The notes below the pieces were generated by a model, which saw nothing but the letters and a program-made list of their open reading frames with translations, was not told where the DNA came from and did no database searches. This document shows, piece after piece, positions 1 to 17,047 of a DNA stretch of 64,000 nt (position 1 is the first letter of the stretch; the number at the start of each line of letters is the position of its first letter). This DNA comes from Candidatus Doudnabacteria bacterium RIFCSPHIGHO2_02_FULL_42_25. Its GTDB lineage: Bacteria > Patescibacteriota > Doudnabacteria > UBA920 > O2-02-FULL-48-8. Location of the stretch: NCBI GenBank assembly GCA_001777665.1, contig MFEQ01000006.1, forward strand, positions 128,880 to 192,879, given 5' to 3'. Made by a program: the position numbers and the translations under genes.

Positions 1-432
1 AAAACACATCCGAGGAACTAAATATTTATCAGCTTGACGCCAGACAGTTTCTGATTGAGGCTCGACTCCCATTTTGCCGTCAAATACTACCACTGCTCCG
101 TCCAATACGCGTAGGGATCGTTCAACTTCAACAGTGAAGTCCACGTGACCTGGAGTATCAATGATGTTGATGCGATGAGTATCTTCTGCTTTTGCTCCAC
201 TCTGGAGAGTCTTAGACCAAAAAGAAGTTGTCGCAGCCGCAGTAATTGTGATTCCGCGTTCACGTTCTTGTTCCATCCAGTCCATGGCAGTGTTACCTTC
301 GTGGACCGCACCAATTTTATGAATTTTTCCTGAGTAATACAAAATCGACTCGGTAGTGGTGGTCTTACCGGCATCGATATGGGCTATGATCCCAATGTTT
401 CTGGTTTTTTCTAAAGAATATTCTCTTGGCAT
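1..432 (-). CDS. fusA: Elongation factor G, N-terminal 144 codons; gene runs off window start
   Basis: Minus-strand ATG at 432 translates [64 protein letters not shown]...[11 protein letters not shown] (G1 AHIDAGKT and G3 DTPGH GTPase motifs). Canonical rpsL-rpsG-fusA order. Missing from the ORF track because it has no stop inside the window. Confidence 0.9.
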
Positions 433-486
433 AAATAGGTCGTATAAGTCTTATAAGTCCTATTGGACCTATTAGACCTATTTTAC

Positions 487-972
487 TTATCGTCTCTGGA
501 ATCGTGCAAAATGAGCAAAGGCTTTGTTAGCTTCTGCCATTTTGTGGACATCTTCTCGTTTCTTTATAGCAGCACCCAATTTGTTGTAGGCTTCCATCAA
601 CTCGGCAGCTAATTTAAAAGCCATGGGTTTGCCTTTTTTATTTCGGGCAGCATCAATAATCCATTTCATACCGAGGGAAGTTTTTCGTGGTTCCTGGACT
701 TCCATCGGGACCTGATAGTTCGCTCCACCAATTCTTCGTCCTTTGACTTCGAGGATCGGTGATACATTTCGGATCGCTTGTTCAAATACTGCTTTCGGAT
801 CAGTCTTCATTTCTTTTTCAATTTGATCAAACGCACCATAAACAAGTTTGGTGGCGACAGTTTTTTTACCGCGCTCCATGATGTAATTTATAAATTTGCC
901 GATTTTAATACTATTGTATTTGTAATCAGCAGCTGCTGGATGTTTTTTATATGACTTAGCTTTACGTGGCAT
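487..972 (-). CDS. rpsG: 30S ribosomal protein S7
   Basis: 161 aa. Motifs GGANYQVPMEV and KKREDVHKMAEANKAFAHF are typical of S7. Sits between rpsL and fusA. Confidence 0.95.
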   Translation of the reverse strand: MPRKAKSYKKHPAAADYKYNSIKIGKFINYIMERGKKTVATKLVYGAFDQIEKEMKTDPKAVFEQAIRNVSPILEVKGRRIGGANYQVPMEVQEPRKTSLGMKWIIDAARNKKGKPMAFKLAAELMEAYNKLGAAIKKREDVHKMAEANKAFAHFARFQRR

Positions 973-974
973 AT

Positions 975-1391
975 TTATTCTCCTCTTTTCGCACCATATT
1001 TACTTCGACCGCGTCGGCGACCTTCAACTCCGCCAGCATCTAATTTGCCGCGGACAATGTGATAACGCACACCCGGCAAATCTTTGACCCTACCGCCACG
1101 AATCATGACCACACTGTGTTCTTGTAAGTTATGTCCGATACCCGGGATGTAGGCTGTGACTTCCATACCATTGGATAGACGGACCCTGGCGATTTTACGC
1201 AACGCAGAGTTTGGTTTTTTCGGAGTCTGTGTCGAAACTTTGATGCAGACACCACGAAGAAATGGGCGACCCTTGGATACATAATAAGGACGGCCTTCCA
1301 ATAGGTTAAATCCACGGTGCAGAGCCGGGGCTTTGAGTTTTGAGGATAATTTAGTTCGTCCTTTACGGACGAGTTGATTGATTGTAGGCAT
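975..1391 (-). CDS. rpsL: 30S ribosomal protein S12
   Basis: 138 aa. [12 protein letters not shown]...[10 protein letters not shown]...[30 protein letters not shown] is a near-universal S12 sequence. Confidence 0.97.
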
Positions 1392-1574
1392 AATTTACGG
1401 ATTTACGAATTGTTACGGACATACGGATGGAGGAACAGGCGTCTTTCGTAAAACTTAACAAATTTAAAGCGGTCTTTTGACCGCGTGCAACTCTAACGCA
1501 GTAAATTAAAGATTTTTTAATAAATTAAGTTTACTGGCAAATATTAACAGGAATCCGAGTATATGTCAACCCCG

Positions 1575-2207
1575 TTAAAAACCCAGCCTTACTCCGCTCC
1601 CGACGAAAAATTCCAAGAAATATTTTACTGGCGGAAAAATTAGTAACTGGACTAAACCAGTATACAAAAATAATATTAGGATAAAAAATCCATAACGCTC
1701 AAGTTCTAGGAACGAATGCATCCAGTTATGATTGATATAACCTAAGATACTTGCGAGAACTTTGGAACCATCCAATGGTGGAATTGGAACTAAATTAAAA
1801 AAACATAAAACTAAATTCAAAATTATGGTTTGGAGCAACAAATATTCTCCCATATCCGATAGATTGGGTGTCAGACGGTAAACTACAGCTGCCAGCAATG
1901 CCAATACAAAATTCGTAGCAACACCAGCCAGAGACACCAAAATCATATCTCGACGGACATTGCGAAAGTTCCTGTAATCCACAGGGACAGGTTTGGCTGA
2001 ACCAAAAATTATCGGGGATCCTATAAAAAGTAAAAAGCCAGGAAGTAAAATTGATCCAAATAAATCGATATGCGGGATGGGGTTAAGCGTCAGTCTACCC
2101 GCAAATCGAGCAGTTGGATCCCCCAACCTTTCGGCCATGATTCCATGTGCCACTTCATGAAAGATCACCGAAAACAACAAAATGATGATAAAAATAAGAA
2201 TTTCCAT
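1575..2207 (-). CDS. Site-2 protease family (peptidase M50) membrane metalloprotease
   Basis: 210 aa, polytopic membrane protein. HEVAH zinc motif lies in the first TM; LDG motif downstream. Confidence 0.75.
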   Translation of the reverse strand: MEILIFIIILLFSVIFHEVAHGIMAERLGDPTARFAGRLTLNPIPHIDLFGSILLPGFLLFIGSPIIFGSAKPVPVDYRNFRNVRRDMILVSLAGVATNFVLALLAAVVYRLTPNLSDMGEYLLLQTIILNLVLCFFNLVPIPPLDGSKVLASILGYINHNWMHSFLELERYGFFILILFLYTGLVQLLIFPPVKYFLEFFVGSGVRLGF

Positions 2208-2313
2208 ACAGGGTTGACCCCGTTAGAAGTTAATCAAATTGGCCAACTTCTAACGGGGTTGACCAAATCAGCAGATTATGCTAAACTTTTTTGGTACATT
2301 AATTGTATCACAT

Positions 2314-2496
2314 ATGAGAAAATGTCAGATCTGTGGCAAAGGCTACCTCAATACTTTTACTCGATCTCACTCGATGCGTAAGACTAAAGTTCGACTCTAC
2401 CCGAATCTTCAATGGTTGAAAATCGAACACGGACGGATCAAAGCTTGTACCAAGTGTATCAAGACTCGAAGTAAAAAGATGGCTCTCGCCGTTTAA
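2314..2496 (+). CDS. rpmB: 50S ribosomal protein L28
   Basis: MRKCQICGKG...RSHSMRKTKVRLYPNLQ matches the L28 consensus (C.ICGK...SHS..KTKRRF.PNLQ). Start taken at the internal ATG at 2314 rather than track ORF 2278. Confidence 0.8.
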   Translation: MRKCQICGKGYLNTFTRSHSMRKTKVRLYPNLQWLKIEHGRIKACTKCIKTRSKKMALAV

Positions 2497-2530
2497 AAAT
2501 CCCTGATGGATCAATCAGGGATTTTTATTA
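2496..2530. terminator. Bidirectional rho-independent terminator between convergent rpmB and mscL
   Basis: aaaaatccctgat-ggatca-atcagggattttt is a perfect 13-bp stem, flanked by A-run and T-run. Confidence 0.65.
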
Positions 2531-2911
2531 TTGCAACTGACTCGTACAATGTGGGCAACGGGTCGATTGTTTAGGGATATCAGTGAAACAAAACGGACAC
2601 TCTTTGGTTTTCCCTTCTTCCTTCGATCGAAACCGATTGATTTGCTTGACCAAAATAAATACCGCAAACGCGACCACTAAAAAATTAATAACTGCATTAA
2701 TAAATGATCCGATGCGCAGGACTCCCGGACCTGGCAGGCCGATCGAAATATTTCGAAATTCTACTAAACCAGTAAAAATGTTTAAGACCGGAGTGAATAT
2801 ATCATTGACTATCGAATTCACAACCGTGGTAAATGCAGCACCAATCACAACTCCTACTGCGAGATCAAGTGCGTTACCTCTAATAGCAAACTTTTTAAAT
2901 TCTTGAAACAT
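2528..2911 (-). CDS. mscL: Large-conductance mechanosensitive channel MscL with C-terminal CxxC...CxxC zinc-ribbon extension
   Basis: MFQEFKKFAIRGNALDLAVGVVIGAAFTTVVNSIVNDI is the MscL N-terminus; two TM helices. C-terminal KECPFCFTDIPKQSTRCPHCTSQLQ. Confidence 0.85.
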   Translation of the reverse strand: MFQEFKKFAIRGNALDLAVGVVIGAAFTTVVNSIVNDIFTPVLNIFTGLVEFRNISIGLPGPGVLRIGSFINAVINFLVVAFAVFILVKQINRFRSKEEGKTKECPFCFTDIPKQSTRCPHCTSQLQ

Positions 2912-3023
2912 ATTATTTTATAGCTCCGTTTTTTTATGCTGCTTAATTGATTCTTCGCCGATGGTCATTGATTTATTGTACCACAAACCCTAACCACCCC
3001 GGACTTGATCCGGGGTCCATGAA

Positions 3024-3066
3024 GTGGATCCCGGATCGCCCGTTGTGGCGTCCGGGATGGGGTTAA
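3024..3066. repeat. GC-rich REP-like hairpin repeat (copy 1), 3' of EamA gene
   Basis: gatcccggatcgcccgttgtggcgtccgggatggggttaaac is a near-identical reverse complement of 4908-4950. Internal hairpin cccgga...tccggg. Confidence 0.6.
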
Positions 3067-4001
3067 ACCGTCCGGGCTTCTGCTTCAACCACTTTCTCGC
3101 TGATTTCTGTTTCGTTGACAATCGTGAGACGAGTAATGGCAAATAACAATATCAAACCTCCGACGATTTGCATGCCCGACAATGTCGCACCCAAAAAAAT
3201 CCAGTTCACGAGTACAGCAGCCAGAGGAAAAGCCAATTCACACAAAGTCGCGACAGATGCTTTCGTCGATTTCAAACCATAGTAATAAATAAGCAGTGAT
3301 ACAAATCCAGCTATAATCGCTGTCATGAACACATAAAACCAATCTTTTGATGATGCAGTCGTGATCTGATTTAAAGTACCATAGTAAATGTTCATGAAAA
3401 ACAAAAATATTAGCGCTGATATAAATCTCAAACTCGTCATCATCTGGAAACTAGCTTTGCGCAAAACATAACGTCCAAACACGGTAGATCCACCCCAGAA
3501 AAATGCTGCACCGAGAGCCAAGACAACACCAATCATGTTTGAATCCCAGGTAAATCCTGTTGGCTTCAAATTTGGGAAAGAAATTACGTATGCCCCAAAA
3601 ATTGCGACTATTGCCCACATCCAAAAATTCTTGGACAATCTTTCACCCAAAACAAAAGTTGCTAACCCAATGGCAATCAAGGGCTGCAATTTTTGAAGGA
3701 GAATCGCAACTGTCGGGTTTAGATAATGAAAACTTTGTGTAAATAAAACAGTAGCCAGTGCCGAACCTCCGAAACCGATAAATAATACCGAGACCCATTC
3801 GCGCCCAGATAAATTTTTCAGTTCAGATACTCTCGGGATGAATAGAAATAATACCAAAACTGCAATCAAAATATGCTCCATCAAAACAATTGCAGTCGAA
3901 GACAAATCTGTAGTTAGAAATTTCCGAAACGGAGCATCTATCGCCCAAAGCACTGCGGCCAGAGTCACAAACCAAGGACCCATATTATTTAATTTATTCA
4001 T
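3063..4001 (-). CDS. EamA/DMT-family transporter (10 TM)
   Basis: 312 aa with two EamA-like halves and ~10 hydrophobic helices. Confidence 0.75.
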   Translation of the reverse strand: MNKLNNMGPWFVTLAAVLWAIDAPFRKFLTTDLSSTAIVLMEHILIAVLVLFLFIPRVSELKNLSGREWVSVLFIGFGGSALATVLFTQSFHYLNPTVAILLQKLQPLIAIGLATFVLGERLSKNFWMWAIVAIFGAYVISFPNLKPTGFTWDSNMIGVVLALGAAFFWGGSTVFGRYVLRKASFQMMTSLRFISALIFLFFMNIYYGTLNQITTASSKDWFYVFMTAIIAGFVSLLIYYYGLKSTKASVATLCELAFPLAAVLVNWIFLGATLSGMQIVGGLILLFAITRLTIVNETEISEKVVEAEARTV

Positions 4002-4238
4002 AAAAAATAAAATGCCTTATTTCAGGGCATTGGCAAAAAACACAAGCCTTCTTTCATCCAGACTATACTGTCGCCCCCGGAATTACACCGGATCATGTCC
4101 CGAATCGGGACTCGCGGGGTTTACCGCCGGTGGGGACATTCTCCCCGCCCTGAAGGTTACTTATTGCTTTTATTATATTTAGTAAATAGTAATTAGTAAA
4201 GAGTAATAAGAATTCTAGCTCTTATTACTAATTACTTC

Positions 4239-4589
4239 TTACTTATTACTCTTAAAGAACTCTCGAGCCATCTTTTCGTCTTCTTTCATCTGCTCTATCA
4301 ACTCTTCTTTGGTTTTGAATTTTATACTCGGCCGTGTTTTTTTGATCAGCTCCACTTCTAGCTCTCGATCATATAAGTTGCCTTCAAAGTCCAAAATATA
4401 CACTTCCACTTTCTGCTTTATTTCTCCAAAAGTTTCTGCGGCCCCGACAAAAACCAAAGAGGGTTTAGTATCGGCCAGCCCGAAATACAATCCGTTCTCA
4501 ATTTCGACAGGAATTTTTAAATTCGCTGTCGGAAAACCCATCTCTTTTCCCCGCCCTTTACCTTTTAACACTTTGCCTTTAAATTTCAT
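4239..4589 (-). CDS. Riboflavin kinase (monofunctional, bacterial RibF C-domain type)
   Basis: GKGRGKEMGFPTANL (PTAN motif) and EVYILDFEGNLYDRELEVEL, the riboflavin-kinase core. Overlaps the upstream gene by 11 nt. Confidence 0.85.
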   Translation of the reverse strand: MKFKGKVLKGKGRGKEMGFPTANLKIPVEIENGLYFGLADTKPSLVFVGAAETFGEIKQKVEVYILDFEGNLYDRELEVELIKKTRPSIKFKTKEELIEQMKEDEKMAREFFKSNK

Positions 4590-4896
4590 GGAGCTTTGTT
4601 ACATTAATTACGGGTTCCTCGTATGGATGCGCCGCTCTGACTCTCTCAATTAAATCTTTAAGATATGCCTCACCGACCACTGTTTCAATCCGCTCTTCTT
4701 CAACTTCTTCCAGCTTCCCGACTTCTCCAATTGTAGGGTTTGCTCCAGCTAGCGGTCGAAATCGTCCGACACCGCGCACAGAAAATGAACAAAAATCATA
4801 ATTCCCGATTTTACCACCACCCGCTTCTCCCATGACTTGCCGAATCTTATCAGCTTCCTCCACTGGAACATAAACGATAACTTTGTACTTACTCAT
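4579..4896 (-). CDS. Small PII-like fold protein (NIF3-insert / COG3323-like)
   Basis: 105 aa. MSKYKVIVYVPVEEADKIRQVMGEAGGGKIGNYDFCSFSVRGVGRFRPLAGANPTIGEVGKLEEVEE...AHPYEEPVINV resembles the PII-like insert domain of NIF3/YqfO proteins. Family assignment is from memory only. Confidence 0.5.
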   Translation of the reverse strand: MSKYKVIVYVPVEEADKIRQVMGEAGGGKIGNYDFCSFSVRGVGRFRPLAGANPTIGEVGKLEEVEEERIETVVGEAYLKDLIERVRAAHPYEEPVINVTKLHEI

Positions 4897-4907
4897 TTGT
4901 GCAATTC

Positions 4908-4950
4908 TCCGTTAACCCATCCCGGACACCACGAAGGGTGATCCGGGATC
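4908..4950. repeat. GC-rich REP-like hairpin repeat (copy 2, inverted), between ribL stop and next start
   Basis: Reverse complement reads gatcccggatcacccttcgtggtgtccgggatgggttaac; compare 3024-3066. Confidence 0.6.
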
Positions 4951-4967
4951 TATTACATCAATTAATA

Positions 4968-5381
4968 CTAATTGTTTCTCTTCTTTCTCATTATACTGCT
5001 CTTAAACCTATCTGGTCTAAACGCCTTCAGTCTCACCACTTTAGTCTTTAATCCATTTCTATGCAATTGAACCTTCAAATTTTTTATGTAGTCTCGTTGG
5101 TCGTAGCCTAATGCTATAACGTCTGGCTTTTCTTTTTGAATATGATCCATCGGATTTTTTAATGCTCCCAGTATTACTTTTTTGGCAATTTTCAAATCTT
5201 TCACATGCTTCAATCGTAACTTTTCACTAAAGACCGGACTAAATCCTTTTGTCTTTTTGACATTCACGTCTCGCGCTATTGAAACAATCAAATAATTTCC
5301 AAGCTTCTTCGCTTGTTTCAAAAATGAAATATGACCAGGATGTAATAAATCAAAAACCCCAAACACCATTACCTTTTTCAT
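4968..5381 (-). CDS. ribL: Archaeal-type FMN adenylyltransferase (RibL-like cytidylyltransferase-fold FAD synthetase)
   Basis: MKKVMVFGVFDLLHPGHISFLKQAKKLGNYLIVSIARDVNVKKTKG...ALGYDQ is collinear with M. jannaschii RibL ([41 protein letters not shown]...LGPDQ) as recalled. H.GH nucleotidyltransferase motif. Sits in an operon with the riboflavin kinase. Confidence 0.7.
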   Translation of the reverse strand: MKKVMVFGVFDLLHPGHISFLKQAKKLGNYLIVSIARDVNVKKTKGFSPVFSEKLRLKHVKDLKIAKKVILGALKNPMDHIQKEKPDVIALGYDQRDYIKNLKVQLHRNGLKTKVVRLKAFRPDRFKSSIMRKKRNN

Positions 5382-5455
5382 CTTGACAAGTCTCCAAAAT
5401 CTGTTATAATAGTATCAATCACGATGAGCGGGCACACCTAAGGTTCGTCCGAAGG

Positions 5456-5950
5456 TTACTCCCGCTCTTTTAATTTGCTTAGCTTATTTTCTAAATTTGA
5501 AACAAAAATAAAATATCTTCGAAACCTTCTTAGCAGAGCCGAGAATTTTCTCGAATTTGGTATGAATAATTTTAATAGTTTTTCCTGCTTCTCTAAATAT
5601 TCAATTAAACAGTGGAAATCGCCATCACCAGTAACAATAATTGCCTTATCATAATTAGGGTATTCAATCATAGAGTGAAGAACTAGCTCAGCATCAACAT
5701 TTCCTTTCGTGAATCTTTCACCTTCCTTTTTGTATTCCAAAGTTGGCTTGAAAACTAACACGTATCCAATTTTTTGCAAATAAGTATACAGTGCTTCGTT
5801 CCCAGCAACGTATCCTATAAATAAAAAGGTTTTGCTGACTTTATATTTATCTTTTAAATAAATGAAAAATCTACTGAAATCCAAGGTCCAGCCGCTATCT
5901 TTAATTGCTAAATTTAAATTTTGACTATCAATGAACGCGTAGATTTTCAT
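5456..5950 (-). CDS. NYN/LabA-like PIN-fold domain protein
   Basis: 164 aa. MKIYAFIDSQNL...AIIVTGDGDF pattern of NYN (LabA) domains. Confidence 0.65.
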   Translation of the reverse strand: MKIYAFIDSQNLNLAIKDSGWTLDFSRFFIYLKDKYKVSKTFLFIGYVAGNEALYTYLQKIGYVLVFKPTLEYKKEGERFTKGNVDAELVLHSMIEYPNYDKAIIVTGDGDFHCLIEYLEKQEKLLKLFIPNSRKFSALLRRFRRYFIFVSNLENKLSKLKERE

Positions 5951-6180
5951 ATACTCTTTTTACGCTTTCAAATTCTCGTAAGGATACTATTTCTTTTGCT
6001 TTCCAACGCAAACTCCAACCCATTTTATTTGGCTTACATAAAGCACAGGAATGTTTTTTGATTTTATACCGCTTCCGCATTAATTAACTATAGACAATTA
6101 TCCAACAACAATCAACACTTTTAGAAATTAGGTCCAATTAGCCTGCCCGCCAAAGCTTCAGCGACGACGGGATTAATTAG

Positions 6181-6232
6181 AAATTTTTCTTACTATCCCC
6201 TTATTCGCATCGACTTCGATCAGATCACGTGT
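6181..6232 (-). pseudogene. 3'-terminal stub of a ninth phosphohistidine-swivel paralog
   Basis: Minus strand reads ...DLIEVDANKGIVRKISN*, the conserved C-terminus of the array paralogs. Compare 15150-15200. Homology stops abruptly at the cassette-1 promoter. Confidence 0.6.
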
Positions 6233-6249
6233 TTTAGAAGGGCTTAGTA

Positions 6250-6278
6250 TTGACAAAAGTACGAAAATAAGCTATCAT
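6250..6278 (+). promoter_or_regulatory. sigma70-type promoter of GC-rich cassette 1
   Basis: TTGACA(6250-6255), 17 bp spacer, TATCAT(6273-6278). ~90 nt leader to the ATG at 6371. Confidence 0.6.
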
Positions 6279-6370
6279 ATTTAGTTCATATTGCACATTC
6301 CAAATTTCGGCAACACTGGCAATCATAGCAATTCAGACATTCACACTTTTGCCTGGGAGGGCAAATTAGC

Positions 6371-6850
6371 ATGCTCAAGGCTTACATTGTCACACACGGT
6401 AAACGGTACGATGGTGCCAATCCTCGCATGACACCGGAAGGGTTCGCGAAAGTCGCGAGCCAGCGTTCCAAGCTTCCGGCTACACCCTCTGAAGTCGTCG
6501 TCGGAACGGGCGATCGGCATATCGAGGTTTGCGATGCGGTCGATCTCGAACCGACCCGATACTCGGCTGTCATCGGTGGTGCCGAAGCACTCGACTCCGT
6601 GAAGCACGACGGCGAGGATATGATCGTTCTGCCCGGTGGCAAGATGATTCCCTACCACATGGACACAACCGAGAAGGATTTGGGTCCGTCCATGAGAGCG
6701 CTTGTCCTCGGGCTGAAAGACGACGCGGTCTTGTGCTCGGGTCGTCTCAGTGTGATCGCCCTCGGGCTGACGCTCGAAGAATCGAAATCGGGTGTCGTCT
6801 ATCTCGTCGAGCACGACGGGGTACAGATCTTCACTATCAGTGAAGTCTAG
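6371..6850 (+). CDS. GC-rich histidine-phosphatase (PGAM/SixA-like) family protein, divergent
   Basis: 159 aa. N-terminal YIVTHGKRYDG corresponds to the RHG catalytic-His motif (R replaced by T). Homologous in layout to 9619 and 16454 genes. Strongly GC-rich versus flanks; all other frames also open. Confidence 0.5.
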   Translation: MLKAYIVTHGKRYDGANPRMTPEGFAKVASQRSKLPATPSEVVVGTGDRHIEVCDAVDLEPTRYSAVIGGAEALDSVKHDGEDMIVLPGGKMIPYHMDTTEKDLGPSMRALVLGLKDDAVLCSGRLSVIALGLTLEESKSGVVYLVEHDGVQIFTISEV

Positions 6851-6857
6851 CATGCAG

Positions 6858-6925
6858 AAAGGCGAGTTGGTTCAACCCCCGAGGATTTATATCCTCGACT
6901 GGTTGCCACTCGCCTTTTGCTTTTG
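6858..6925. terminator. Bidirectional terminator after cassette 1 / paralog A
   Basis: aaaggcgagttgg...ccactcgccttttgcttttg with inner hairpin cgaggatttatatcctcg. The 3' tail cgccttttgcttttgtctaaattttt is identical to that at 10311-10336. Confidence 0.55.
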
Positions 6926-6926
6926 T

Positions 6927-8384
6927 CTAAATTTTTTTGACTATTCCCTTGTTTGTATCTAACTCAACTAAATCTCCATCCTTAAAAATCGACGTTGCTA
7001 TTCTTGTTCCTATTATCGAACTGATGCCTAACTCACGGCTTACTATGGCCGCGTGACAAGTCAATCCACCTTCATCTGTCACAACAGCCGCGGCCTTACG
7101 CATTGCTGGCACGAAATCTGGTGAAGTCATTGCCGTCAAAAGAATTTCTCCTTTTTTCATTTTAGATGCTTCTGCAGCGGTTAACATTCTTCTAATCCTA
7201 CCTTTCAGTATAGATTTGCTACCGACGCTCCCCACGATCCCTTTCACTTCATTAGCTTTGCTGATCTTTTCTGTATATTTTGAAAGATGCTGTTTCGCTT
7301 TCTTTCCAATTATAACTTCCAATATTTTTCCATTTTTTGAATTTACAAAAATAACGTTGTTAATCCGTTTTCTGGCCAAATCTTTTAAAATATTCATTTT
7401 CTTTTTCTTTGTTAAAAGATTAATTTCAACCAAATCCAGATATTTTAATTCTTTTAAAGTTAGCTGAGTCTGCTTTGAAATATTTCTCAATAACAAATCT
7501 ACGGCATAGTGAATTCGGAAATGAACACTTTTTCTCTCGTCAGCAGTTGTGATAAGAGTCTGGACAGTATTAATCAATCTTCTATATTTATTTAACTCAT
7601 ATTCATTAATTGTATTTTTTTGTTCTTTGGCTAACTCAAAGTTTTCCAAAAGTATTTTATCAATTTTCGATTTCAACCATTTTTTGTTTTTAACTTCCAA
7701 TGATGTGAGCGTGTCCTCAAAATACTGATTGTCCCAGTATAATGGGCCATCGTAACCAAACGGAATCCATCCAAATTTATCAGATAAATTTCGAGCTAAT
7801 TTTTTCTTATTCTTTCCAGATTTGACGGCAAGAGCTGATTTGTAACGCGCAAGCTCCTCCTGAGTGGTTAAAGAAAGAGTTCTGGGAAGAAATAGTCGAA
7901 CAATTTTTACTCTAGGAATATTCAGTTTTTCCAATTCCAAATATAAATAGTCTTTTAAAGCTTCTGCTCCCACAAACCATGGCAAGGTGTTTATTCGATC
8001 ATATTTAAACCAAAGTTTTTGTAAATAAAACAAAGACTTGATAGATTTCGTTAATGTAAAATTTCCAGTTTTTAATTGTTCAAGAAATGTTAAGACGGCT
8101 TTTTCTAATGCTTGTCCTGTTTTTAACTGGTCCCTATGTATTCGAGAAAAGTAGTTCGGATGATGAATAAAATATCTTAATAAGTGTTGAGCTATTTTAT
8201 TCCACTCCTTTTGTTCATAAATCCAAATCCCCTTACCATCTTCAAAGAATAAGACATCGCAGTTAAATTTAATCCCGTGAATTTTTAGCATCTCGGGATG
8301 ATTTTTAGAAATAGTATTCCAGACCGAGGGGAGATAATCTATATTTCTCGCTCGAGGAATTAAATATCCTTTTTTGGGTAGCAT
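6927..8384 (-). CDS. Swivel-domain paralog A: divergent N-terminal domain + PEP-utilizing-enzyme mobile (phosphohistidine) domain
   Basis: 485 aa. C-terminus GEILLTAMTSPDFVPAMRKAAAVVTDEGGLTCHAAIVSRELGISSIIGTRIATSIFKDGDLVELDTNKGIVKKI matches PF00391 (GG.TSHAAI.ARE.G.P...G). Confidence 0.8.
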   Translation of the reverse strand: MLPKKGYLIPRARNIDYLPSVWNTISKNHPEMLKIHGIKFNCDVLFFEDGKGIWIYEQKEWNKIAQHLLRYFIHHPNYFSRIHRDQLKTGQALEKAVLTFLEQLKTGNFTLTKSIKSLFYLQKLWFKYDRINTLPWFVGAEALKDYLYLELEKLNIPRVKIVRLFLPRTLSLTTQEELARYKSALAVKSGKNKKKLARNLSDKFGWIPFGYDGPLYWDNQYFEDTLTSLEVKNKKWLKSKIDKILLENFELAKEQKNTINEYELNKYRRLINTVQTLITTADERKSVHFRIHYAVDLLLRNISKQTQLTLKELKYLDLVEINLLTKKKKMNILKDLARKRINNVIFVNSKNGKILEVIIGKKAKQHLSKYTEKISKANEVKGIVGSVGSKSILKGRIRRMLTAAEASKMKKGEILLTAMTSPDFVPAMRKAAAVVTDEGGLTCHAAIVSRELGISSIIGTRIATSIFKDGDLVELDTNKGIVKKI

Positions 8385-8385
8385 A

Positions 8386-9486
8386 CTATTTTATCTTCCT
8401 CACAATCCCCTTATTTGCATCAACTTCAATAAAATCTCCATCTTTAAAAACTTTTGTAGCAATTTGTGTTCCAATTACACAAGGTTTCTTCATTTCACGA
8501 GCTGTAATCGCAGCATGAGATAAAATCCCACCTGCATCAGTTACAAATGCTGCCGCCTTATGCATGATCGGCAAAAACTCTGGTCTGGTCGCCCCTGTAA
8601 CCAGAATACTTCCTGGTTTAAAATCTTTAACTTTACTTGGATCTAATACAATTCTTACTTTTCCCGTAACTTTTCCCGGGAAGGCTATTGCCCCTTTAAG
8701 TTCTGATTTTTTCGAGGTTTGTTTTAGTAATCTTTCTATTTTAGAAATATCTGGACCAATTAGGAACTGAAACGAATCTTTTTCTCTTATTAAAACTGCT
8801 CCTGCGTCTCTTTTCTTCAGTTCGAGTTTGTTGGGTAATTTCCTTTTATTAAAATAATCATTTACTTCTTCTTTAATTAAACAAAGTAACAACTGATAAG
8901 AATACTTAGTTTCTTTACTCAGTAGTTTAACAAATCGAATCATAAAATCTTCTGTGCGGTTCAAAACTGGCTCAGCAGTTAGTCTGGCTTCTTGTAAACT
9001 TGGTAAATACTGTTTCAAGAGATCTGGATGCAAATAATCAACAACATACTTCACATTGATATGGGGATGATAGTATGCCAATACTCTTTTCCAAAATTCA
9101 TCATATAACGTTTTTGTAATTAGTCTGCCTTCGTATTGATCTATGAATTTCAAAATACCTTTAGCTTGAAATTTTAATTTATTCGCAATAACCTTAGCCT
9201 CCTTAGGATTCTTTACAATTCTTTGCGCTAGATAATTTCCCAATCGATCGCGATCAGATTGTCTCATCCATCCATTACTGCGCCCGTGAGATATAAAAAT
9301 GATTGATTGGGATTTGAATGGTTTTCCGCCAAACAAAAGTTCTTTGGTGTATTGTTGGATAAAATGCGTGCTCGTTAAAAAACTCCACCGACCATCGTAG
9401 ATTTTAGTCCAATCCTCGTGTTTAAACGATTTGATATTCATGCTACTAATTATGCCAGATAGCGCTATTATTGACAAAAGCGCCAA
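8386..9486 (-). CDS. Swivel-domain paralog B (short class)
   Basis: 366 aa. ...VTDAGGILSHAAITAREMKKPCVIGTQIATKVFKDGDFIEVDANKGIVRKIK. N-terminal region homologous to paralogs C and F. True start may be the internal ATG at 9441. Confidence 0.8.
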   Translation of the reverse strand: MALLSIIALSGIISSMNIKSFKHEDWTKIYDGRWSFLTSTHFIQQYTKELLFGGKPFKSQSIIFISHGRSNGWMRQSDRDRLGNYLAQRIVKNPKEAKVIANKLKFQAKGILKFIDQYEGRLITKTLYDEFWKRVLAYYHPHINVKYVVDYLHPDLLKQYLPSLQEARLTAEPVLNRTEDFMIRFVKLLSKETKYSYQLLLCLIKEEVNDYFNKRKLPNKLELKKRDAGAVLIREKDSFQFLIGPDISKIERLLKQTSKKSELKGAIAFPGKVTGKVRIVLDPSKVKDFKPGSILVTGATRPEFLPIMHKAAAFVTDAGGILSHAAITAREMKKPCVIGTQIATKVFKDGDFIEVDANKGIVRKIK

Positions 9487-9499
9487 ATTGTGCTATTAT
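9471..9499 (+). promoter_or_regulatory. sigma70-type promoter of GC-rich cassette 2
   Basis: TTGACA(9471-9476), 17 bp, TATTAT(9494-9499). Same tattgacaaaag context as cassette 1. ~120 nt leader. Confidence 0.6.
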
Positions 9500-9618
9500 G
9501 GATAGTTTATAATAGTTCTTTTTAAGGTATGAGTCTGTGTTTGGCTTTAATTTTTTAAAACTAGTCTCGGGCTCATACCAATAACTCACCTAACAGTTCA
9601 ACCTCGAATCAGGAGACG

Positions 9619-10233
9619 ATGATGAGAACAGTGACGTTTTATTGTATGCGGCATGGCCACCGACTCAAGGGTGGCGACGAACTCAGTAAACTGGGCTACA
9701 AGCAGGTCGAGGCATCGGCGAAGGAGCACCTCAGCGGCATCAACTTCGTCGCTACCTTCAGCAGTGGGATGCATCGAGCAAACCAAAGCGCGGCCCTGAT
9801 CCTCGGAGCGCTAGGAATTACTGAGCTGTATGTGCAGCGCGAAGAAGGTTTCAGCTTTGAATGGTTCTGGTCTGATCCTAACATGCCGAAGGTCGAGATG
9901 CTGAACTACGCGACGATCGGCGAGTACTTCGACAACATGTTTCCGCTGGCGTTTGCGACCAGAGGTCGCGTGATGCAGACGCTGTTGCATCTGGCGTCCA
10001 GCATCGTGGCCTGGTCCGGTGCCGACCGTGAAGGTCCTCTCAATGTTCTCGTCGTTTCCCATTCCCCGACGATCGACACGGCAGTACCGGAGCCGAAGGG
10101 CTTCCCGCGACTGAAGGAAGCAGACATCTGCGTCTATAACGTCTCCGTCGACGACCAGGGTCACTCAACCATCGAAAGCGCTCGCTACCTCTCGGCGCCG
10201 AAAGTCGAAGAGAACGATACAGCGAAGGTCTAG
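9619..10233 (+). CDS. GC-rich histidine-phosphatase (PGAM/SixA-like) family protein
   Basis: 204 aa. FYCMRHGHRLKGG (RHG catalytic motif), SSGMHRANQSAALI (second Arg region), VLVVSHSPTID (C-terminal His). GC-rich. Confidence 0.7.
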   Translation: MMRTVTFYCMRHGHRLKGGDELSKLGYKQVEASAKEHLSGINFVATFSSGMHRANQSAALILGALGITELYVQREEGFSFEWFWSDPNMPKVEMLNYATIGEYFDNMFPLAFATRGRVMQTLLHLASSIVAWSGADREGPLNVLVVSHSPTIDTAVPEPKGFPRLKEADICVYNVSVDDQGHSTIESARYLSAPKVEENDTAKV

Positions 10234-10270
10234 TCGAACGTGAGTCACACTCAAGGAGGGTGTGCGAATC

Positions 10271-10326
10271 AAAAAGGCGATCGGCCGAATTCCATTGTGG
10301 AATTCCCGCTCGCCTTTTGCTTTTGT
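10271..10326. terminator. Bidirectional terminator after cassette 2 / paralog C
   Basis: aaaaaggcga...(gaattccattgtggaattc)...tcgccttttgcttttg. Confidence 0.55.
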
Positions 10327-11364
10327 CTAAATTTTTCTAACTGTGCCCTTATTCGCATCTACTTCTACCGAATCTCCGTCTTTTAGAACTCTAGTAGCAT
10401 ACTTAGTTCCTACTATACATGGTTTCTTCAACTCACGGGCAGAAATTGCAGCATGTGAAAGCATACCTCCCGCATCTGTTACAAAAGCGGCAGCTTTTCT
10501 CATTAGCGGCAAAAATTCTGGCCTCGTCATTCCGGTGACTAAAATATCTCCTTTTTTAAACCCTTTTGATTCTTTAGGATCAAGTATAACTAAAGCCTTA
10601 CCCTTTACTAATCCTGGAAATGCTGGTTGACCCTTTATCTCCTCTCCTGTTTTTTCTATGCTTTTTTCAAATTTATCTGAATCTCTGCCCACTTTAAGCT
10701 GAACTAATCCATTCCTGTAAATAATAGCGCACGACTTATATCTACTCGCCAATTCCTTTTTTGCTGGAAGGTTCCCAGTTTTCCAGTACTGATCAATCTC
10801 CTCACGCGTGACATATAAAACATGTTCTTTCTTGTAGCGAGTCTTTGTTGCGATTTGCTTTGCCATTAATTCCATGAATTTTTCTGTTTCGGCAAAAACA
10901 GGTTCTGCATATAACCGCGCCTTTTGAAGCTGCGGCAAGAATTCTTTATACTTAGCGGGAGGCAAACTATCAACAACCACCTTCACTACACGATGTGGGA
11001 CGCAGTACTCATAAAGATATTTAACAAATTTATTATAGTCTTCAGCATCTATAGTTTTCTTTCTTGAAGTGACATTGATAAAATTTAGAATCTGATCGGT
11101 TTTAGCAATTAAATCCTGGGTCCAATGCAGTAGTTGTCGTTTATTCGTTACAATTTTATCAGCCAAATACTGACTGAATTTTTTATAGTTACCCGCGTTG
11201 AGATAACAAGTACTGTAACCAGAATGAGAAATGAATATCGCTCTATCAAAACCATACCCCAAAGACTTTTTGAGTAGTTTAGTATATTGATAACCGAGAT
11301 GGGAGTTATTAAGTAATTTCCAATGCCCAGCCCAATGTTTTATCCATTCTTCTCGATTACTCAT
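10327..11364 (-). CDS. Swivel-domain paralog C (short class)
   Basis: 345 aa. ...VTDAGGMLSHAAISARELKKPCIVGTKYATRVLKDGDSVEVDANKGTVRKI. N-terminus aligns with B along its length. Confidence 0.8.
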   Translation of the reverse strand: MSNREEWIKHWAGHWKLLNNSHLGYQYTKLLKKSLGYGFDRAIFISHSGYSTCYLNAGNYKKFSQYLADKIVTNKRQLLHWTQDLIAKTDQILNFINVTSRKKTIDAEDYNKFVKYLYEYCVPHRVVKVVVDSLPPAKYKEFLPQLQKARLYAEPVFAETEKFMELMAKQIATKTRYKKEHVLYVTREEIDQYWKTGNLPAKKELASRYKSCAIIYRNGLVQLKVGRDSDKFEKSIEKTGEEIKGQPAFPGLVKGKALVILDPKESKGFKKGDILVTGMTRPEFLPLMRKAAAFVTDAGGMLSHAAISARELKKPCIVGTKYATRVLKDGDSVEVDANKGTVRKI

Positions 11365-11367
11365 TTT

Positions 11368-12246
11368 TTATGTCAGGTCTAATGCTTCTTTATCTTTAAT
11401 TATTTCATCAATCAATTCCGGAGTTAGCTCCCACTGTTGATCTTTATATTTCAAGACTATATCAGTGCCTGTTTCATCCCCAACCAAATCAAGACTAAAC
11501 CCTTCGCTGAATCCAAACCCATTTTTATCTGGTAAGGACTCTATAAATTTCATAACATCGTCTCGCCCCTTTGTCTTTTCGATGACTTTCATTAAAAAAC
11601 TTTCAGTGACCGTAGCATGAGAACCCAAAAATCGTTGTAATTCATTTTGAAATTTAAGATATTTATCTGGATTGTCAGCAACTAACCGCTGAAAGTTAGG
11701 TAAAATTTCTAAATATCTCCTTACTATCTCTGCAATTCCTGCCGCTTGTCTGCTATAACTGGTGGAGGAATGATCTTTAAGTTTTCGAACAAGATCGTCG
11801 CTTTCTTCTACAGCAAATAATAAATAATCTTTTTTATTTACATAATGATCCATAGCTGCATCTTTAAATTCACCCTCCCAAACAAAATTCAATCTTTCGT
11901 CTACCATGTCCTTTCTTCCAACTTTCACCGATCCGGCCACCAACTCTTTGATGTCTTCAAGAGTTGTATCTTCTCCGATTTCGGGTTGGTCAGCCAACAT
12001 CTGGCGCATCGCGGTTTCCACAGAACGTTCACGGGAGGATCCGAATGCCACAGCCACTTCAGGATTGGGATTTTTTTCTTTGCCTACTTCGGATGCATGT
12101 TTTCTTCCTTTTTCTGTTAAACGCACTGTGGTATCGGGTTGCCCTTCTGCAGCCTTAGCTTTATCATCATGCCTAAAAAATTCCAAATGAATCGAAGCTT
12201 TGGGTAATGACTCTCGACTTTCACGACCTAAATCTCTTGTTTCCAT
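11368..12246 (-). CDS. AT-rich, in-line histidine-phosphatase-like protein (divergent)
   Basis: 292 aa. EFFRHDDKAKAAEG (RH. motif), VAFGSSRERSVETA (second Arg). Native codon usage, same strand as the array. Confidence 0.45.
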   Translation of the reverse strand: METRDLGRESRESLPKASIHLEFFRHDDKAKAAEGQPDTTVRLTEKGRKHASEVGKEKNPNPEVAVAFGSSRERSVETAMRQMLADQPEIGEDTTLEDIKELVAGSVKVGRKDMVDERLNFVWEGEFKDAAMDHYVNKKDYLLFAVEESDDLVRKLKDHSSTSYSRQAAGIAEIVRRYLEILPNFQRLVADNPDKYLKFQNELQRFLGSHATVTESFLMKVIEKTKGRDDVMKFIESLPDKNGFGFSEGFSLDLVGDETGTDIVLKYKDQQWELTPELIDEIIKDKEALDLT

Positions 12247-12259
12247 ATATTTTTATTAA

Positions 12260-13744
12260 TTATCTTAATTTTCGCACAATTCCATTGTTCGCGTCCACCT
12301 CCACCATATCGCCATCTTTAAAAACTCGAGTTGCCACTTTAGTTCCTATAATGCAGGGAATTTTTAGTTCCCTTGAAATAATTGCAGCATGTGAGGTAAT
12401 TCCACCTTCATCGGTAACAATAGCCGAGGCCTTATTCATGGCGGAAATCATTTCTGGTCTAGTCATAGAAGCTATAATTATGTTTCCCTTTTTCATCTTT
12501 TTCATATCTTGAAAAGTAAGAATGACCTTTACTGTCCCTTTTGCGATACCAGTTGAAGCCACCATCCCGGAAATCTTTTCTAATGAATTCGAAGTTTTGG
12601 GATAAATTAACTTCTTTAATTTTTTAGCATCTGGTCCTTCATAAACAAAAATACCTGAACCACGAGTAGCCACTACTGCACTTGCTTGTTTGCGCTTTTT
12701 AATCAAAACTTTCAATTTTACTTTATCGAGAGATATTAATTGAGGTAATTCATCAATATAGGTATATTTCATCTCCTCAAAAGAAATTTTTAAACGAGAT
12801 GAATATTCTTTCATAAATAAACCGATTATATTGTTAGACATCATTGAGTACTTTTTTCTTTCGTCCTGCATATAAGCAAACGCTTCTACCACTCTTATTA
12901 AAGTCTTTGACCAGCTATCTAGCTTGAGCTTTTTAATTAGGTCTTTTTTCTTTGTACCACTCTTTCTAAGTTGATATTGAGTATTTTCAATTGCCACCTT
13001 AGCCTTTTGAAGAGTTAATTTATTCAGTTGTTGACCAAAGTAAGTCGCATCCAACCAAGGAATATATGCATAATTACTATGAATCCAAAAATATTTCTTA
13101 GAATGCTCTTTGAGTAGTGATTGTTTGAGTTTTGGGTCTGTTTTTTTTAATTTTATTTTTGCTAAGTCAAGGGCTTCTGCTTTAACAAAAGATAAGTTCA
13201 CCGGCTGGATAAGAATAGTATAAAGCTCTATAAAACGATTTTTGTAGCCAAGCGAAGAAATTACTTTATCAAAATGAGGAACCAAAAATTCCTCGGTTGT
13301 CATCGTAAATGGGTCCTGGATGGCTATTCCATAACTAAATTCTTCTCCGTAAGCATCATCAAATTTTTTGTAAAATTCAAATAATTCTTGATTTGAAAGC
13401 TTTTTTAAATCTATACGAATTACCCTCGCAATAACCCTATCTAAGATTATTACTTTCTCTTCCCAAATATCGACTAATTTGTCTAAATATTTAGGATTTG
13501 CCTTCAACTTTCTTATAAACAAATCTCTTATTCTAACCGAATCCTCATAACACCAACTCCATTCTCCATGTTCCTTACTATCAAAAAAATCCATAATTAC
13601 ATTATGGGAAGTACCAAAAAACTTACGAAACTCGAAAGCCGCTCTATGCACTGGATAGTGGAAATGTAAAACACCGTGATAACCTTTTCTAAACCAGTTT
13701 AGTTTGTTTAACCCATATTTCTTAACTAATTGTGCCGGCTTCAT
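12260..13744 (-). CDS. Swivel-domain paralog D (long class)
   Basis: 494 aa. ...VTDEGGITSHAAIISRELKIPCIIGTKVATRVFKDGDMVEVDANNGIVRKLR. Overlaps E by 4 nt. Confidence 0.8.
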   Translation of the reverse strand: MKPAQLVKKYGLNKLNWFRKGYHGVLHFHYPVHRAAFEFRKFFGTSHNVIMDFFDSKEHGEWSWCYEDSVRIRDLFIRKLKANPKYLDKLVDIWEEKVIILDRVIARVIRIDLKKLSNQELFEFYKKFDDAYGEEFSYGIAIQDPFTMTTEEFLVPHFDKVISSLGYKNRFIELYTILIQPVNLSFVKAEALDLAKIKLKKTDPKLKQSLLKEHSKKYFWIHSNYAYIPWLDATYFGQQLNKLTLQKAKVAIENTQYQLRKSGTKKKDLIKKLKLDSWSKTLIRVVEAFAYMQDERKKYSMMSNNIIGLFMKEYSSRLKISFEEMKYTYIDELPQLISLDKVKLKVLIKKRKQASAVVATRGSGIFVYEGPDAKKLKKLIYPKTSNSLEKISGMVASTGIAKGTVKVILTFQDMKKMKKGNIIIASMTRPEMISAMNKASAIVTDEGGITSHAAIISRELKIPCIIGTKVATRVFKDGDMVEVDANNGIVRKLR

Positions 13745-15138
13745 TTAATTTTCCTTACCATTCCTTTACTTGTATCTACTTCGATCCTGTCACCATTTTT
13801 AAAAATTGTGGTAGCAATTTTGGTTCCAACTATACATGGCACGCCTAGCTCTCTGGAAACTACCGCGGCATGGGACATTAATCCGCCAACGTCAGTAACA
13901 ATCGCTTTGGCTTTACGCATGAGTACAATATAATCCGGTTCAGTCATGGTAGTAATAAGAACTTCACCAGCTTTCATTTTTTCAGGATTACGAGCTGATA
14001 ACATAATTCTGGCCCGACCTATCACTAAAGGTCCTCGGCTGACGGTAATTCCTGTGACACTACCCTGATTCACGTTATTTCGAGTTTGATACTTTTTGGC
14101 GATTTTCGCTGCTGCTCTACCGGTCAGAATCTTGTATTCTTTATTCTTCATCGAGATAACACAAAGTTTTTTTCTCTGATTTATTTCATCATTAGAAAGT
14201 TTTTTTCCAGTGGTATCCAGATCCACCCATTCTTCAGCAGTGTAATATTGTAAATCATTAAGAGATATTCGATATTTTCGGCTAGTCAGCCGAAGCAAGT
14301 TATCAATCTTGTAAAGCGTTCGCCAAACTTCCGCCTTACGATCATCCTGCCACCAGATAGAAAAAGATAAAATCTCTGCCTGATTGATCACAGATTTAGG
14401 TAACTTAAATTTCTTAATAATGTCAGCTTTTCTTTTCTTAACACTCTTTATGTAATTTTCAATTTTTTGTATTTCGAATTTTAACCGTTTTTTATTCAGG
14501 CCTTTCAATCTCTGATAAAAGTCATTTCTAGTCAGTCTTCTGGTTTCGTAATAACTATTTTCAATCCATCCCCAGTTTTGACTATGTTTTTCTAATAATG
14601 TCGTCAGACTTTTTTTATTTCTGGCTCTTAGTCCAGCTTTAAATAATTCTAAATCTGATTCCTGATGGAAGCTCGGTCGATCCAAAGCTAAGAGCGCTTC
14701 CAATACTTCATCCAAATTGTTTTTCGGAACAAATTTACGGATTTGATTTCTTAGAAATACTGGAGCGCTATAATTGGCAGTTTCTGGGATTAATGCAATA
14801 TTCCAAAATTGTATGAATTTATCATAAAGTTCCTTAACAGATTCAGATTGGAACTGATTTAATTCTTTTTTTGCTTTCATATAAACTTTCCAAACTTGTC
14901 TTCTTATCTGTGCAGGTAACAGCCATCTTTTAATAATCTGCAATCCGTGACGTTCGACAGCTACTTTATCCCAACGATAAGTTAATCGATCATGATCTAA
15001 TATTCCAAAGGTCCCTGGCCAAAAAATATCATAAGAGTTCAATTTTCCTGCCCAAGGCAATATAAAAAAAGAATGATACAAAATCTTTGAATCAATCGGC
15101 CCCCACTGTTCCAGTTCTTTCGAAATTGCTCTACTCAT
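13741..15138 (-). CDS. Swivel-domain paralog E (long class)
   Basis: 465 aa. ...VTDVGGLMSHAAVVSRELGVPCIVGTKIATTIFKNGDRIEVDTSKGMVRKIK. Confidence 0.8.
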   Translation of the reverse strand: MSRAISKELEQWGPIDSKILYHSFFILPWAGKLNSYDIFWPGTFGILDHDRLTYRWDKVAVERHGLQIIKRWLLPAQIRRQVWKVYMKAKKELNQFQSESVKELYDKFIQFWNIALIPETANYSAPVFLRNQIRKFVPKNNLDEVLEALLALDRPSFHQESDLELFKAGLRARNKKSLTTLLEKHSQNWGWIENSYYETRRLTRNDFYQRLKGLNKKRLKFEIQKIENYIKSVKKRKADIIKKFKLPKSVINQAEILSFSIWWQDDRKAEVWRTLYKIDNLLRLTSRKYRISLNDLQYYTAEEWVDLDTTGKKLSNDEINQRKKLCVISMKNKEYKILTGRAAAKIAKKYQTRNNVNQGSVTGITVSRGPLVIGRARIMLSARNPEKMKAGEVLITTMTEPDYIVLMRKAKAIVTDVGGLMSHAAVVSRELGVPCIVGTKIATTIFKNGDRIEVDTSKGMVRKIK

Positions 15139-15141
15139 TAT

Positions 15142-16275: not shown

Positions 16276-16276
16276 T
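16248..16276 (+). promoter_or_regulatory. sigma70-type promoter of GC-rich cassette 3
   Basis: TTGACA(16248-16253), 17 bp, TACAAT(16271-16276). ~175 nt leader to ATG 16454. Confidence 0.55.
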
Positions 16277-16453
16277 TGATCGTTATAATTAAGTATTTAT
16301 AAATGCCGCAAGGCGTGAATAAATCGATTGTAACTTGTGTACCTTACAATCTAATGGTATGGGTTTATGCCTCAAGTTCTCAAGAGGACTTTGGACACGA
16401 ACCCATACCAAGATCTCAACTACTCACGTTCCACTTTCGTTCTGGAGAGCGAC

Positions 16454-17047
16454 ATGAAAACTCTGACCTATCGGCGCCATTCTTTGAAGGATGGCCACTA
16501 CATCAGCAAGGCTGGCATCGAACTGGCTCGGGATGAAGCTGAGGTGTACGAGAGCAGGCCGGACGCCGTGGAATTCAGCTGCGTTTTCCACGGACCATTC
16601 GTTCGTACTGCTCAGACCGCCCTCGCCTTCTGCTGCGCACTGACAGTGACGCCGCCGGACGCAATGCCGATCATCGAAGAAATCGGCAACGACGCGATCG
16701 TCGCTCTCATCGTCAACGATGCATTCAAGGCTGCGGTCGCCAAGGGCGAGTCCAACTATCAGGCGACCGTCTCGTCCCACAGTGCAACGGAGCTCAGCGA
16801 CCTCTCACGGACGGCGATGGCAGCGGTGACCAAGATGTTCGATGCGATGAAAGACAAGAACGACGTCGGAATCGCGTTTGGTCACAGCCCGATCATCGAG
16901 CTGGCTGTATGCAACATGTCCGGCCTGCCCGACGGCTGGAATGAGCTCAATGAGATGGATGGGCTGGTCCTCGAACAGGATGACGCCGGTCAGATTCGCG
17001 TCGTGGAGCTCATCCGCGCGAACCGCGAGCAGCCGGCGACGGCGTAG
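16454..17047 (+). CDS. GC-rich histidine-phosphatase (PGAM/SixA-like) family protein
   Basis: MKTLTYRRHSLKDGHY (RHS), HGPFVRTAQTALAF, IAFGHSPIIEL. Start moved from track ORF 16367 to the ATG at 16454, which has a ggagag SD; the GC shift begins here. Confidence 0.65.
   Translation: MKTLTYRRHSLKDGHYISKAGIELARDEAEVYESRPDAVEFSCVFHGPFVRTAQTALAFCCALTVTPPDAMPIIEEIGNDAIVALIVNDAFKAAVAKGESNYQATVSSHSATELSDLSRTAMAAVTKMFDAMKDKNDVGIAFGHSPIIELAVCNMSGLPDGWNELNEMDGLVLEQDDAGQIRVVELIRANREQPATA

Follow-up and report, generated by a model that had tools for sequence, protein, structure and literature searches.

The window analysed here, a 64-kb stretch of Doudnabacteria DNA from Rifle groundwater, contains an array of about 35% GC in which a split, stand-alone PPDK_N ATP-grasp gene is followed downstream by eight paralogs, P8 to P1 (H to A in the preliminary description of this DNA). 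Each paralog ends in a C-terminal PF00391 swivel domain (E=1e-22 to 1e-26), and the TDEGG(I/L)T(S/C)HAA motif is visible in their translations. Three plus-strand genes of 55-60% GC (c1, c2 and c3, the genes of cassettes 1 to 3) interrupt the array, and a short minus-strand stub lies at its edge beside cassette 1. Identical contigs are also present in ENA and JGI; two independent assemblies among them agree base for base with the window over 1-16850, with no population variants there, and the P1 protein recurs unchanged in at least 43 metagenome collection blocks. An Rfam search of 5400-21600 for structured RNA returned nothing credible. The features of the region are as follows.

5456-5950, minus strand: NYN-domain gene, downstream of the stub, missing from the corresponding position in the syntenic relative L095
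6173-6248, minus strand: the stub, a 3' relic of a ninth swivel-domain paralog (P0), recognised by homology to the eight paralog tails
6250-6278, plus strand: cassette-1 promoter, TTGACA-17-TATCAT (11/12 consensus), with its -35 hexamer at 6250-6255
6371-6850, plus strand: c1, 159 aa, GC 57%, GC3 66%, THG motif, histidine-phosphatase (PGAM-like) fold
6854-6936, both strands: bidirectional hairpin terminator common to c1 and P1 (-37 kcal/mol, z=-6.7)
6927-8384, minus strand: P1 (paralog A), 485 aa, intact swivel-domain protein, convergent with c1
8386-21039, minus strand, with c2 and c3 on the plus strand: remainder of the array, comprising the seven swivel paralogs P2-P8, the PPDK_N gene, a native-GC histidine-phosphatase-like gene and the interleaved c2 and c3
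9619-10233, plus strand: c2, GC-rich, His_Phos_1 match
16367-17047, plus strand: c3, GC-rich, His_Phos_1 match
20104-21039, minus strand: the PPDK_N ATP-grasp gene (PPDK_N E=3.4e-98)

We liken this layout to that of the split small-molecule dikinases HpeHI/CreHI/PpsAB and of the single-chain rifampin phosphotransferase RPH (PMC12167813; PMC4844700). Like them, the array has a separate ATP-grasp subunit (PPDK_N) and partners with a C-terminal phosphohistidine swivel domain, so that both parts of a two-component dikinase are present. Unlike them, it has one ATP-grasp gene followed by eight (formerly nine) highly diverged swivel subunits and is interleaved with histidine-phosphatase-fold genes; a dikinase role of the array is predicted from these genes. 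The paralogs are 20-34% identical to each other in their N-terminal parts and 42-70% identical in their swivel parts, a divergence that on these values is ancient. Residues 322-491 of P4 align with residues 700-864 of RPH (E=6.5e-14), a span only slightly exceeding the swivel domain, and the N-terminal domains of the paralogs had no match among Pfam and PDB sequences.

On the paralog strand within the array, at 11368-12246, the window also encodes a 292-aa protein of native GC with a weak His_Phos_1 match (RHD motif) and a 37% identical counterpart in the related locus L097; the phosphatase superfamily is thus represented in the array by native-GC as well as GC-rich genes. Relatives of the NYN gene beside the stub (59-82% identical) occur in unrelated contexts on at least 245 metagenome contigs; this gene may circulate widely and have been inserted here recently. 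A split PPDK_N gene with four swivel-domain matches was also observed on CAYWRI010000016.1 (L006), which is binned as an uncultured Methanosarcinales archaeon of 27% GC, indicating either a wide distribution of this type of array or a binning error.

The cassette genes

The predicted structure of c1 (pLDDT 88, confident) has the histidine-phosphatase/PGAM fold. A collection of 5.8 billion proteins yielded only three c1 homologs, in the loci L010, L011 and L012. The orthologs in L010 and L011 are 66% and 59% identical to c1 at the amino-acid level and have a GC3 of 0.73 and 0.79, respectively, in flanks of 30-40% GC; both carry the same ATTGACAAAAGT promoter and an orthologous terminator hairpin, and both lie at the array edge, convergent with a swivel paralog. 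The L012 homolog is 41% identical, of native GC (GC3 0.17) and co-directional with its paralog. The c3 orthologs in L093 and L095 are likewise GC-rich. Since GC-rich orthologs of c1 and c3 occur in other genomes, the cassettes are long-standing residents of these arrays, and c1 is old rather than a recent arrival. The GC-rich composition persists in the following orthologs of cassette genes.

L010, 2513-2995: c1 ortholog
L011, 1237-1743: c1 ortholog
L093, 4441-5049: c3 ortholog
L095, 5685-6302: c3 ortholog

Overall, the cassette genes have a GC3 of 0.66-0.79, as compared to 0.27-0.37 in their neighbours, and this composition is kept in orthologs that are only 34-66% identical. It is foreign-looking, and it coexists with a native AT-rich promoter. 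A further GC-rich island was observed near the array of L010, where a 431-aa ORF of 60% GC (3-1295, minus strand), cut by the contig end, stands beside an OTCase gene; it has no Pfam match, and the host genome is of about 35-40% GC.

Extent, homology and coding history of the stub

The preliminary description had placed a decayed minus-strand 3' stub of a ninth swivel paralog at 6181-6232. The stub is present, and its true extent is 6173-6248: a TAA at 6173-6175 moves the start of the feature 8 nt to the left of 6181. The minus strand reads ...KTRDLIEVDANKGIVRKISN followed by a stop, with the ending ...DLIEVDANKGIVRKISN and stop, and the reverse complement of 6173-6241 translates to PSKTRDLIEVDANKGIVRKISN and stop. 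Its parts, all in minus-strand sense, are listed below.

6173-6175, minus strand: P0 stop codon, TAA
6176-6181, minus strand: two extra codons, S-N
6182-6226, minus strand: clean codons DLIEVDANKGIVRKI, the 15-codon core
6227-6241, minus strand: variant codons PSKTR
6240-6241, minus-strand frame: 2-nt insertion (gg), a frameshift at the 5' edge
6242-6248, minus strand: ACTAAGC (gcttagt on the plus strand), T-K-L codons, matching P8 at 7/7 positions

The match between the stub and the paralogs is true homology and not chance. A repeat search aligned 6183-6239 in register with the 3' ends of all eight paralogs (65-74% identity), and an nhmmer profile built from the eight tails matches 6183-6240 with E=1.1e-9. 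When 48-mers at all positions of both strands were compared with the eight tails, the stub scored 38/48 and the best unrelated site 28/48. The resemblance to the 3' ends of paralogs F and C noted earlier was reproduced by blastn-short, which aligned the stub with the tails of P6 (F; 32/34 positions identical, E=6e-9), P3 (C; 33/37, E=5e-6) and P2 (21/23); at the protein level, tblastn aligned 14/15 residues with P2. The similarity also persists when the 3' ends of all paralogs are aligned with the stub, whose core agrees with them at 31-37/45 positions. Across the 64 kb, tblastn with all eight paralogs found no fragment besides the stub and no 5' half of P0. A full-length gene in an alternative frame was sought and none found, the only ORF over the stub being one of 27 aa. 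The hairpin downstream of the stub (-17 kcal/mol, z=0.11) is not significant as a terminator.

The homology is clean to about 6241 and, in a gapped alignment that allows for the 2-nt insertion, extends through 6248. It had been described as ending exactly where the promoter context of cassette 1, gcttagtattgacaaaag, begins; as the homology runs through 6248, part of that string consists instead of paralog-derived bases. Beyond codon 20, the sequence upstream of the stub is 20-33% identical to the paralogs, which is the random level, and 5' of 6248 (in stub sense) lies the c1 promoter sequence.

The eight intact tails agree among themselves at 27-36/45 core positions, and the highest identity of the stub to any extant tail is 82% (37/45, to P6 and P3). 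All 15 core residues fall within the residue sets of the eight intact paralogs, and the codon differences between stub and paralogs are mostly synonymous (8 synonymous and 1 non-synonymous against P2), which argues that P0 evolved as a coding gene. The stub has K-T-R-D where most paralogs have K-D-G-D; because K-T-G-D and K-T-K-D occur in intact paralogs of other genomes, this variant does not necessarily reflect decay. Its RKISN ending and its KTRD variant are found in none of the window paralogs and resemble variants in intact paralogs of other genomes, and endings in ...KKIS and stop are also seen in intact paralogs. The term "decayed" was therefore mostly wrong, given 15 core codons compatible with the family, and applies only to the 5' edge with its 2-nt frameshift. 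By this pattern of differences the stub is a distinct ninth paralog, P0, and not a dead copy of P6 or P3, in keeping with the earlier view that the array once had one more member.

Alternatively, the stub could be a partial duplication or ectopic copy of an existing tail (P6 or P3), produced by illegitimate recombination or gene conversion. P6 and P3 are indeed its closest relatives (37/45), a 20-nt exact match is shared with the P6 tail, and conversion of tails occurs in such arrays: in L095, two adjacent paralogs (514 and 425 aa) are nearly identical over some 120-150 nt at their 3' ends (8590-8736 and 9855-10001), including the unusual C-terminal extension ...GIVRLVSSKKLENESRRVRKI, a clear case of gene conversion or recent duplication between paralog tails. 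We nonetheless regard this explanation as improbable. The best identity is only 82%, and the 8-10 differences are mostly synonymous or at family-variable positions. In simulations of neutral decay on the nearest tails, all 15 residues remained compatible with the family in about 1% of runs with 4 substitutions and about 0.01% with 8, so that a dead copy gives the difference pattern of the stub in at most about 1% of simulations. The RKISN ending and the KTRD variant, present in no window paralog, also speak against a copy from within the array.

For P0 as a separate paralog, the clean core points to a probably late loss of the gene body, provided that an older relic was not refreshed by gene conversion. 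Conversion of tails as in L095 could make an old stub look fresh, which weakens the term "recent"; relative to the ancient divergence of the paralogs, the truncation nevertheless appears to be recent.

The stub itself is nothing out of the ordinary, a gene remnant bordering a tandem paralog array. Like other deletion remnants in tandem paralog arrays, it is a short, in-register, same-strand and conserved 3' fragment at the array edge, without the rest of the gene, the start codon or the catalytic motif. It differs from them in that its 15 retained codons are unusually clean (no stops or frameshifts, family residues throughout) and in that its breakpoint spares the neighbouring promoter by only 1-5 nt.

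Promoters, terminators and the loss of P0

Cassettes 1-3 are each preceded by a near-consensus promoter, TTGACA-17-TAnnAT. On the opposite strand, the TTGACA box of cassettes 2 and 3 reads TTGTCA and is the -35 element of a divergent paralog promoter, that of P2 and P6, respectively; these divergent promoter regions, in which the two -35 elements overlap back to back, lie at 9441-9477 and 16216-16254. In both paralogs (ATG at 9441 for P2 and at 16218 for P6), a TG-extended CATAAT ends 6-7 nt ahead of the ATG, which suggests that the P2 and P6 transcripts may be leaderless. With leaderless starts, the TTG-start ORFs of 366 and 377 aa would be too long and the real products would have 351 and 358 aa; the start positions of the gene callers agree with these ATGs.

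At cassette 1 the shared box is kept, and the -10 element (CATAAT) and the ATG are missing, with the P0 tail in their place. The junction falls within about 6245-6249, at a distance of 1-5 nt to the c1 -35 box.

It might be argued that the stub is functional, through translation of a 27-aa micro-ORF or by serving the c1 promoter as upstream DNA (UP-element or operator). The frame and the family-typical residues are perfectly kept over 15 codons, the stub occupies positions -1 to about -75 relative to the -35 box, and one gene caller annotated a 30-residue gene over 6173-6326, spanning it. Nevertheless, the 27-aa ORF has no ribosome-binding site, its only start is a TTG within the -35 box, formed by the reversed hexamer, and the -10 found at the equivalent divergent promoters is absent. 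In L010 and L011, moreover, the c1 orthologs function with no such stub upstream. As compared to a functional gene, the stub lacks a start, a ribosome-binding site or leaderless promoter, and the full length. Its swivel-domain homology comprises the last ~20 of the 72 PF00391 profile positions, and the phosphocarrier histidine motif T/S-x-x-G-G-x-x-x-H, whose place is about 45 codons upstream of the retained part, is missing. As the catalytic motif lies outside what is retained, the stub is a fragment and not a domain, and, unlike the intact paralogs of the dikinase family, it is without every catalytic part. We know of no independent role for a 15-20 residue beta-strand fragment of a 72-residue domain. 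A function of the stub is thus quite improbable, and we consider it a non-functional relic.

The loss of the paralog had been attributed to insertion of the cassette or to an associated deletion. A simple insertion is excluded, because the c1 terminator abuts the P1 stop and no other P0 fragment exists in the 64 kb. With no 5' part of P0 anywhere in the window, the loss requires that about 1-1.4 kb was deleted or replaced; the promoter architecture of the three cassettes points to a deletion, the form of the event that we infer. Overall, the stub is probably the relic of a formerly functional P0 that was truncated by a single deletion or replacement. In the proposed course of events, P0 would have been a separate functional gene for most of its history, encoding a swivel substrate subunit of a split RPH/PpsA-type dikinase array. 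Its -10 element, its start codon and all but the last ~23 codons would then have been lost in one deletion or replacement, which would measure about 1 kb for a short-type P0 and about 1.4 kb for a long-type one. One breakpoint would have fallen 1-5 nt from the -35 hexamer of the divergent c1 promoter, leaving that promoter intact. After the deletion, only the 2-nt frameshift, and perhaps a few substitutions, would have accumulated at the 5' edge of the stub.

We also considered a rule by which a cassette is always divergent from a paralog of the short type. It holds in the window and fails for L093 and L095, where the c3 orthologs are divergent from P7 orthologs; given these exceptions, the rule is not used as evidence.

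At the other end, each cassette has a strong hairpin terminator that also serves the convergent paralog. A terminator tail had been reported to be identical after cassettes 1 and 2 and to abut the stop codons of A (P1) and C (P3). This was confirmed as a 28-nt block, CTCGCCTTTTGCTTTTGTCTAAATTTTT, which occurs exactly at 6909-6936 and 10309-10336, contains the stops of P1 (6927-6929) and P3 and is the second-longest exact direct repeat in the window. The recent segmental duplication that had been read from it is unsupported, because the cassette proteins of c1 and c2 are not alignable (E=20), those of c2 and c3 barely so (E=5e-4), and the paralogs are anciently diverged (20-34% in their N-terminal parts). 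Around the block the hairpin interiors differ and the P1 and P3 tails agree at 33/45 positions; instead of the extended near-identity of a recent duplication, only the 28-nt exact block is common. The identity does not extend beyond this patch, and a short gene-conversion tract, or constraint on the shared bidirectional terminator, accounts for it better.

Other repeats were observed in the window. An 8-nt inverted repeat flanks cassettes 1 and 2, its promoter copy reading GACAAAAG and its copy in the terminator tail CTTTTGTC. As a candidate terminal inverted repeat of the cassettes it was rejected; it is not conserved at the c1 orthologs of L010 and L011 and is therefore probably incidental. 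Between 43173 and 44785, an exact 21-33 nt repeat, AATTGCTACCTATTTTATACA(AATGTAAAAAAT), occurs three times and may be a promoter or operator present in several copies. A GC-rich inverted repeat consists of two blocks, each about 24-26 nt long, 30 kb apart.

6251-6258 and 6918-6925: 8-nt inverted repeat at cassette 1
9472-9479 and 10318-10325: 8-nt inverted repeat at cassette 2
43173/43175, 44037 and 44751/44753: copies of the 21-33 nt repeat, including the longest exact direct repeat in the window
32841-32905 and 63055-63118: GC-rich inverted repeat

Cassette 1 could also be an integrative element that inserted in the 3' end of a paralog and carried a replacement end, the stub being the displaced tail. 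The resemblance to the attL/attR 3'-end duplications of islands (e.g. in tRNA/tmRNA genes) is that a partial 3' copy lies beyond a unit that looks inserted and is foreign in composition. Direct repeats of one gene segment, the stub and the P1 tail, stand on either side of the cassette, the terminator module holds the last codons and the stop of a paralog (P1, P3), and a relic tail is present in L011. Yet the P1 tail is among the least stub-like (32/45, as opposed to 37/45 for P3 and P6), and no identical core is duplicated. No integrase or recombinase gene is found among the array ORFs, conserved end repeats are lacking, as the 8-nt inverted repeat illustrates, promoter-end stubs are absent at cassettes 2 and 3, and a motif scan found none at the c1 orthologs of L010 and L011. 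We therefore hold integration to be highly improbable. As for a chance match in AT-rich intergenic DNA, for which nothing speaks beyond the short length of the match, its probability is negligible given E-values of 1e-9 and 6e-9, 38/48 identities against a background maximum of 28/48, and a position in register, in frame and on the array strand.

Related arrays and the turnover of paralogs

Comparison with relatives was expected to inform on the number of paralogs. Related arrays contain 1-5 swivel paralogs in differing order; none of the relatives found has an intact P0 on the promoter side of c1. The promoter-side neighbour of the c1 ortholog is an OTCase gene in L010 and an unrelated 348-aa gene in L011. 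The latter was rejected as a P0 ortholog (hhalign probability 1.7-12.9%, no PF00391 match). A scan for the swivel-tail motif upstream of the cassette in L010-L012 found no stub; we attribute one weak Smith-Waterman match upstream of the L011 c1 ortholog (p ~0.004) to promoter and ribosome-binding-site sequence.

Among syntenic relatives, L095 is the closest: its PPDK_N gene is 81% identical to that of the window, its P2 and P7 orthologs 70% and 69%, and its CTP_transf_like and flavokinase genes 72% and 52%, respectively. Its array terminates in an intact 496-aa paralog, the stop of which overlaps the CTP_transf_like start; in the window, the position next to CTP_transf_like is occupied by the stub and the NYN gene. 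The 496-aa paralog has no ortholog among the eight of the window (best 31%), and its tail matches the stub at an unexceptional 32/45. By position, the stub would be compatible with a remnant of the ortholog of this terminal paralog.

Two broader scans were anchored on genes of the window. Among 80 loci on metagenome contigs with an NYN gene of 59-82% identity, none (0/80) has an adjacent swivel array, and hence none offers an orthologous junction. In GTDB, the arrays recovered with P1 were all distant (29-36% identity), and none of them contained GC-rich islands.

L011 shows another trace of paralog loss beside cassette 1: joined to the terminator of its c1 ortholog is a 28-nt relic (1817-1844) that reads NGIVRKI and stop and whose distance to the stop codon of the 491-aa gene now adjacent is about 110 nt (Smith-Waterman p<0.002; by nhmmer alone E=9, not significant). 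A broader and rather unlikely idea, which we put forward tentatively, is that the histidine-phosphatase cassettes are discrete promoter-to-terminator modules that retain their composition (GC3 about 0.7), promoter and terminator from genome to genome and are reshuffled within arrays, with paralog 3' ends as preferred breakpoints or recombination substrates. The stub, the L011 relic and the 28-nt tail would then be products of one recurring process and not of an isolated, accidental deletion.

The value of the stub is that of a dated marker: it indicates that the Doudnabacteria dikinase array had at least nine substrate-subunit paralogs and, as its clean codons suggest, lost one recently, in an event that stopped a few bases short of the neighbouring cassette promoter. 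Alongside the differently ordered arrays of relatives, it points to an array in flux. The stub bears on, without answering, the question of why histidine-phosphatase genes with a GC3 of about 0.7 persist in the AT-rich dikinase arrays of the CPR (candidate phyla radiation). The more unusual object is the surrounding system, in which one ATP-grasp subunit is combined with many diverged swivel subunits and with persistently GC-rich histidine-phosphatase genes.
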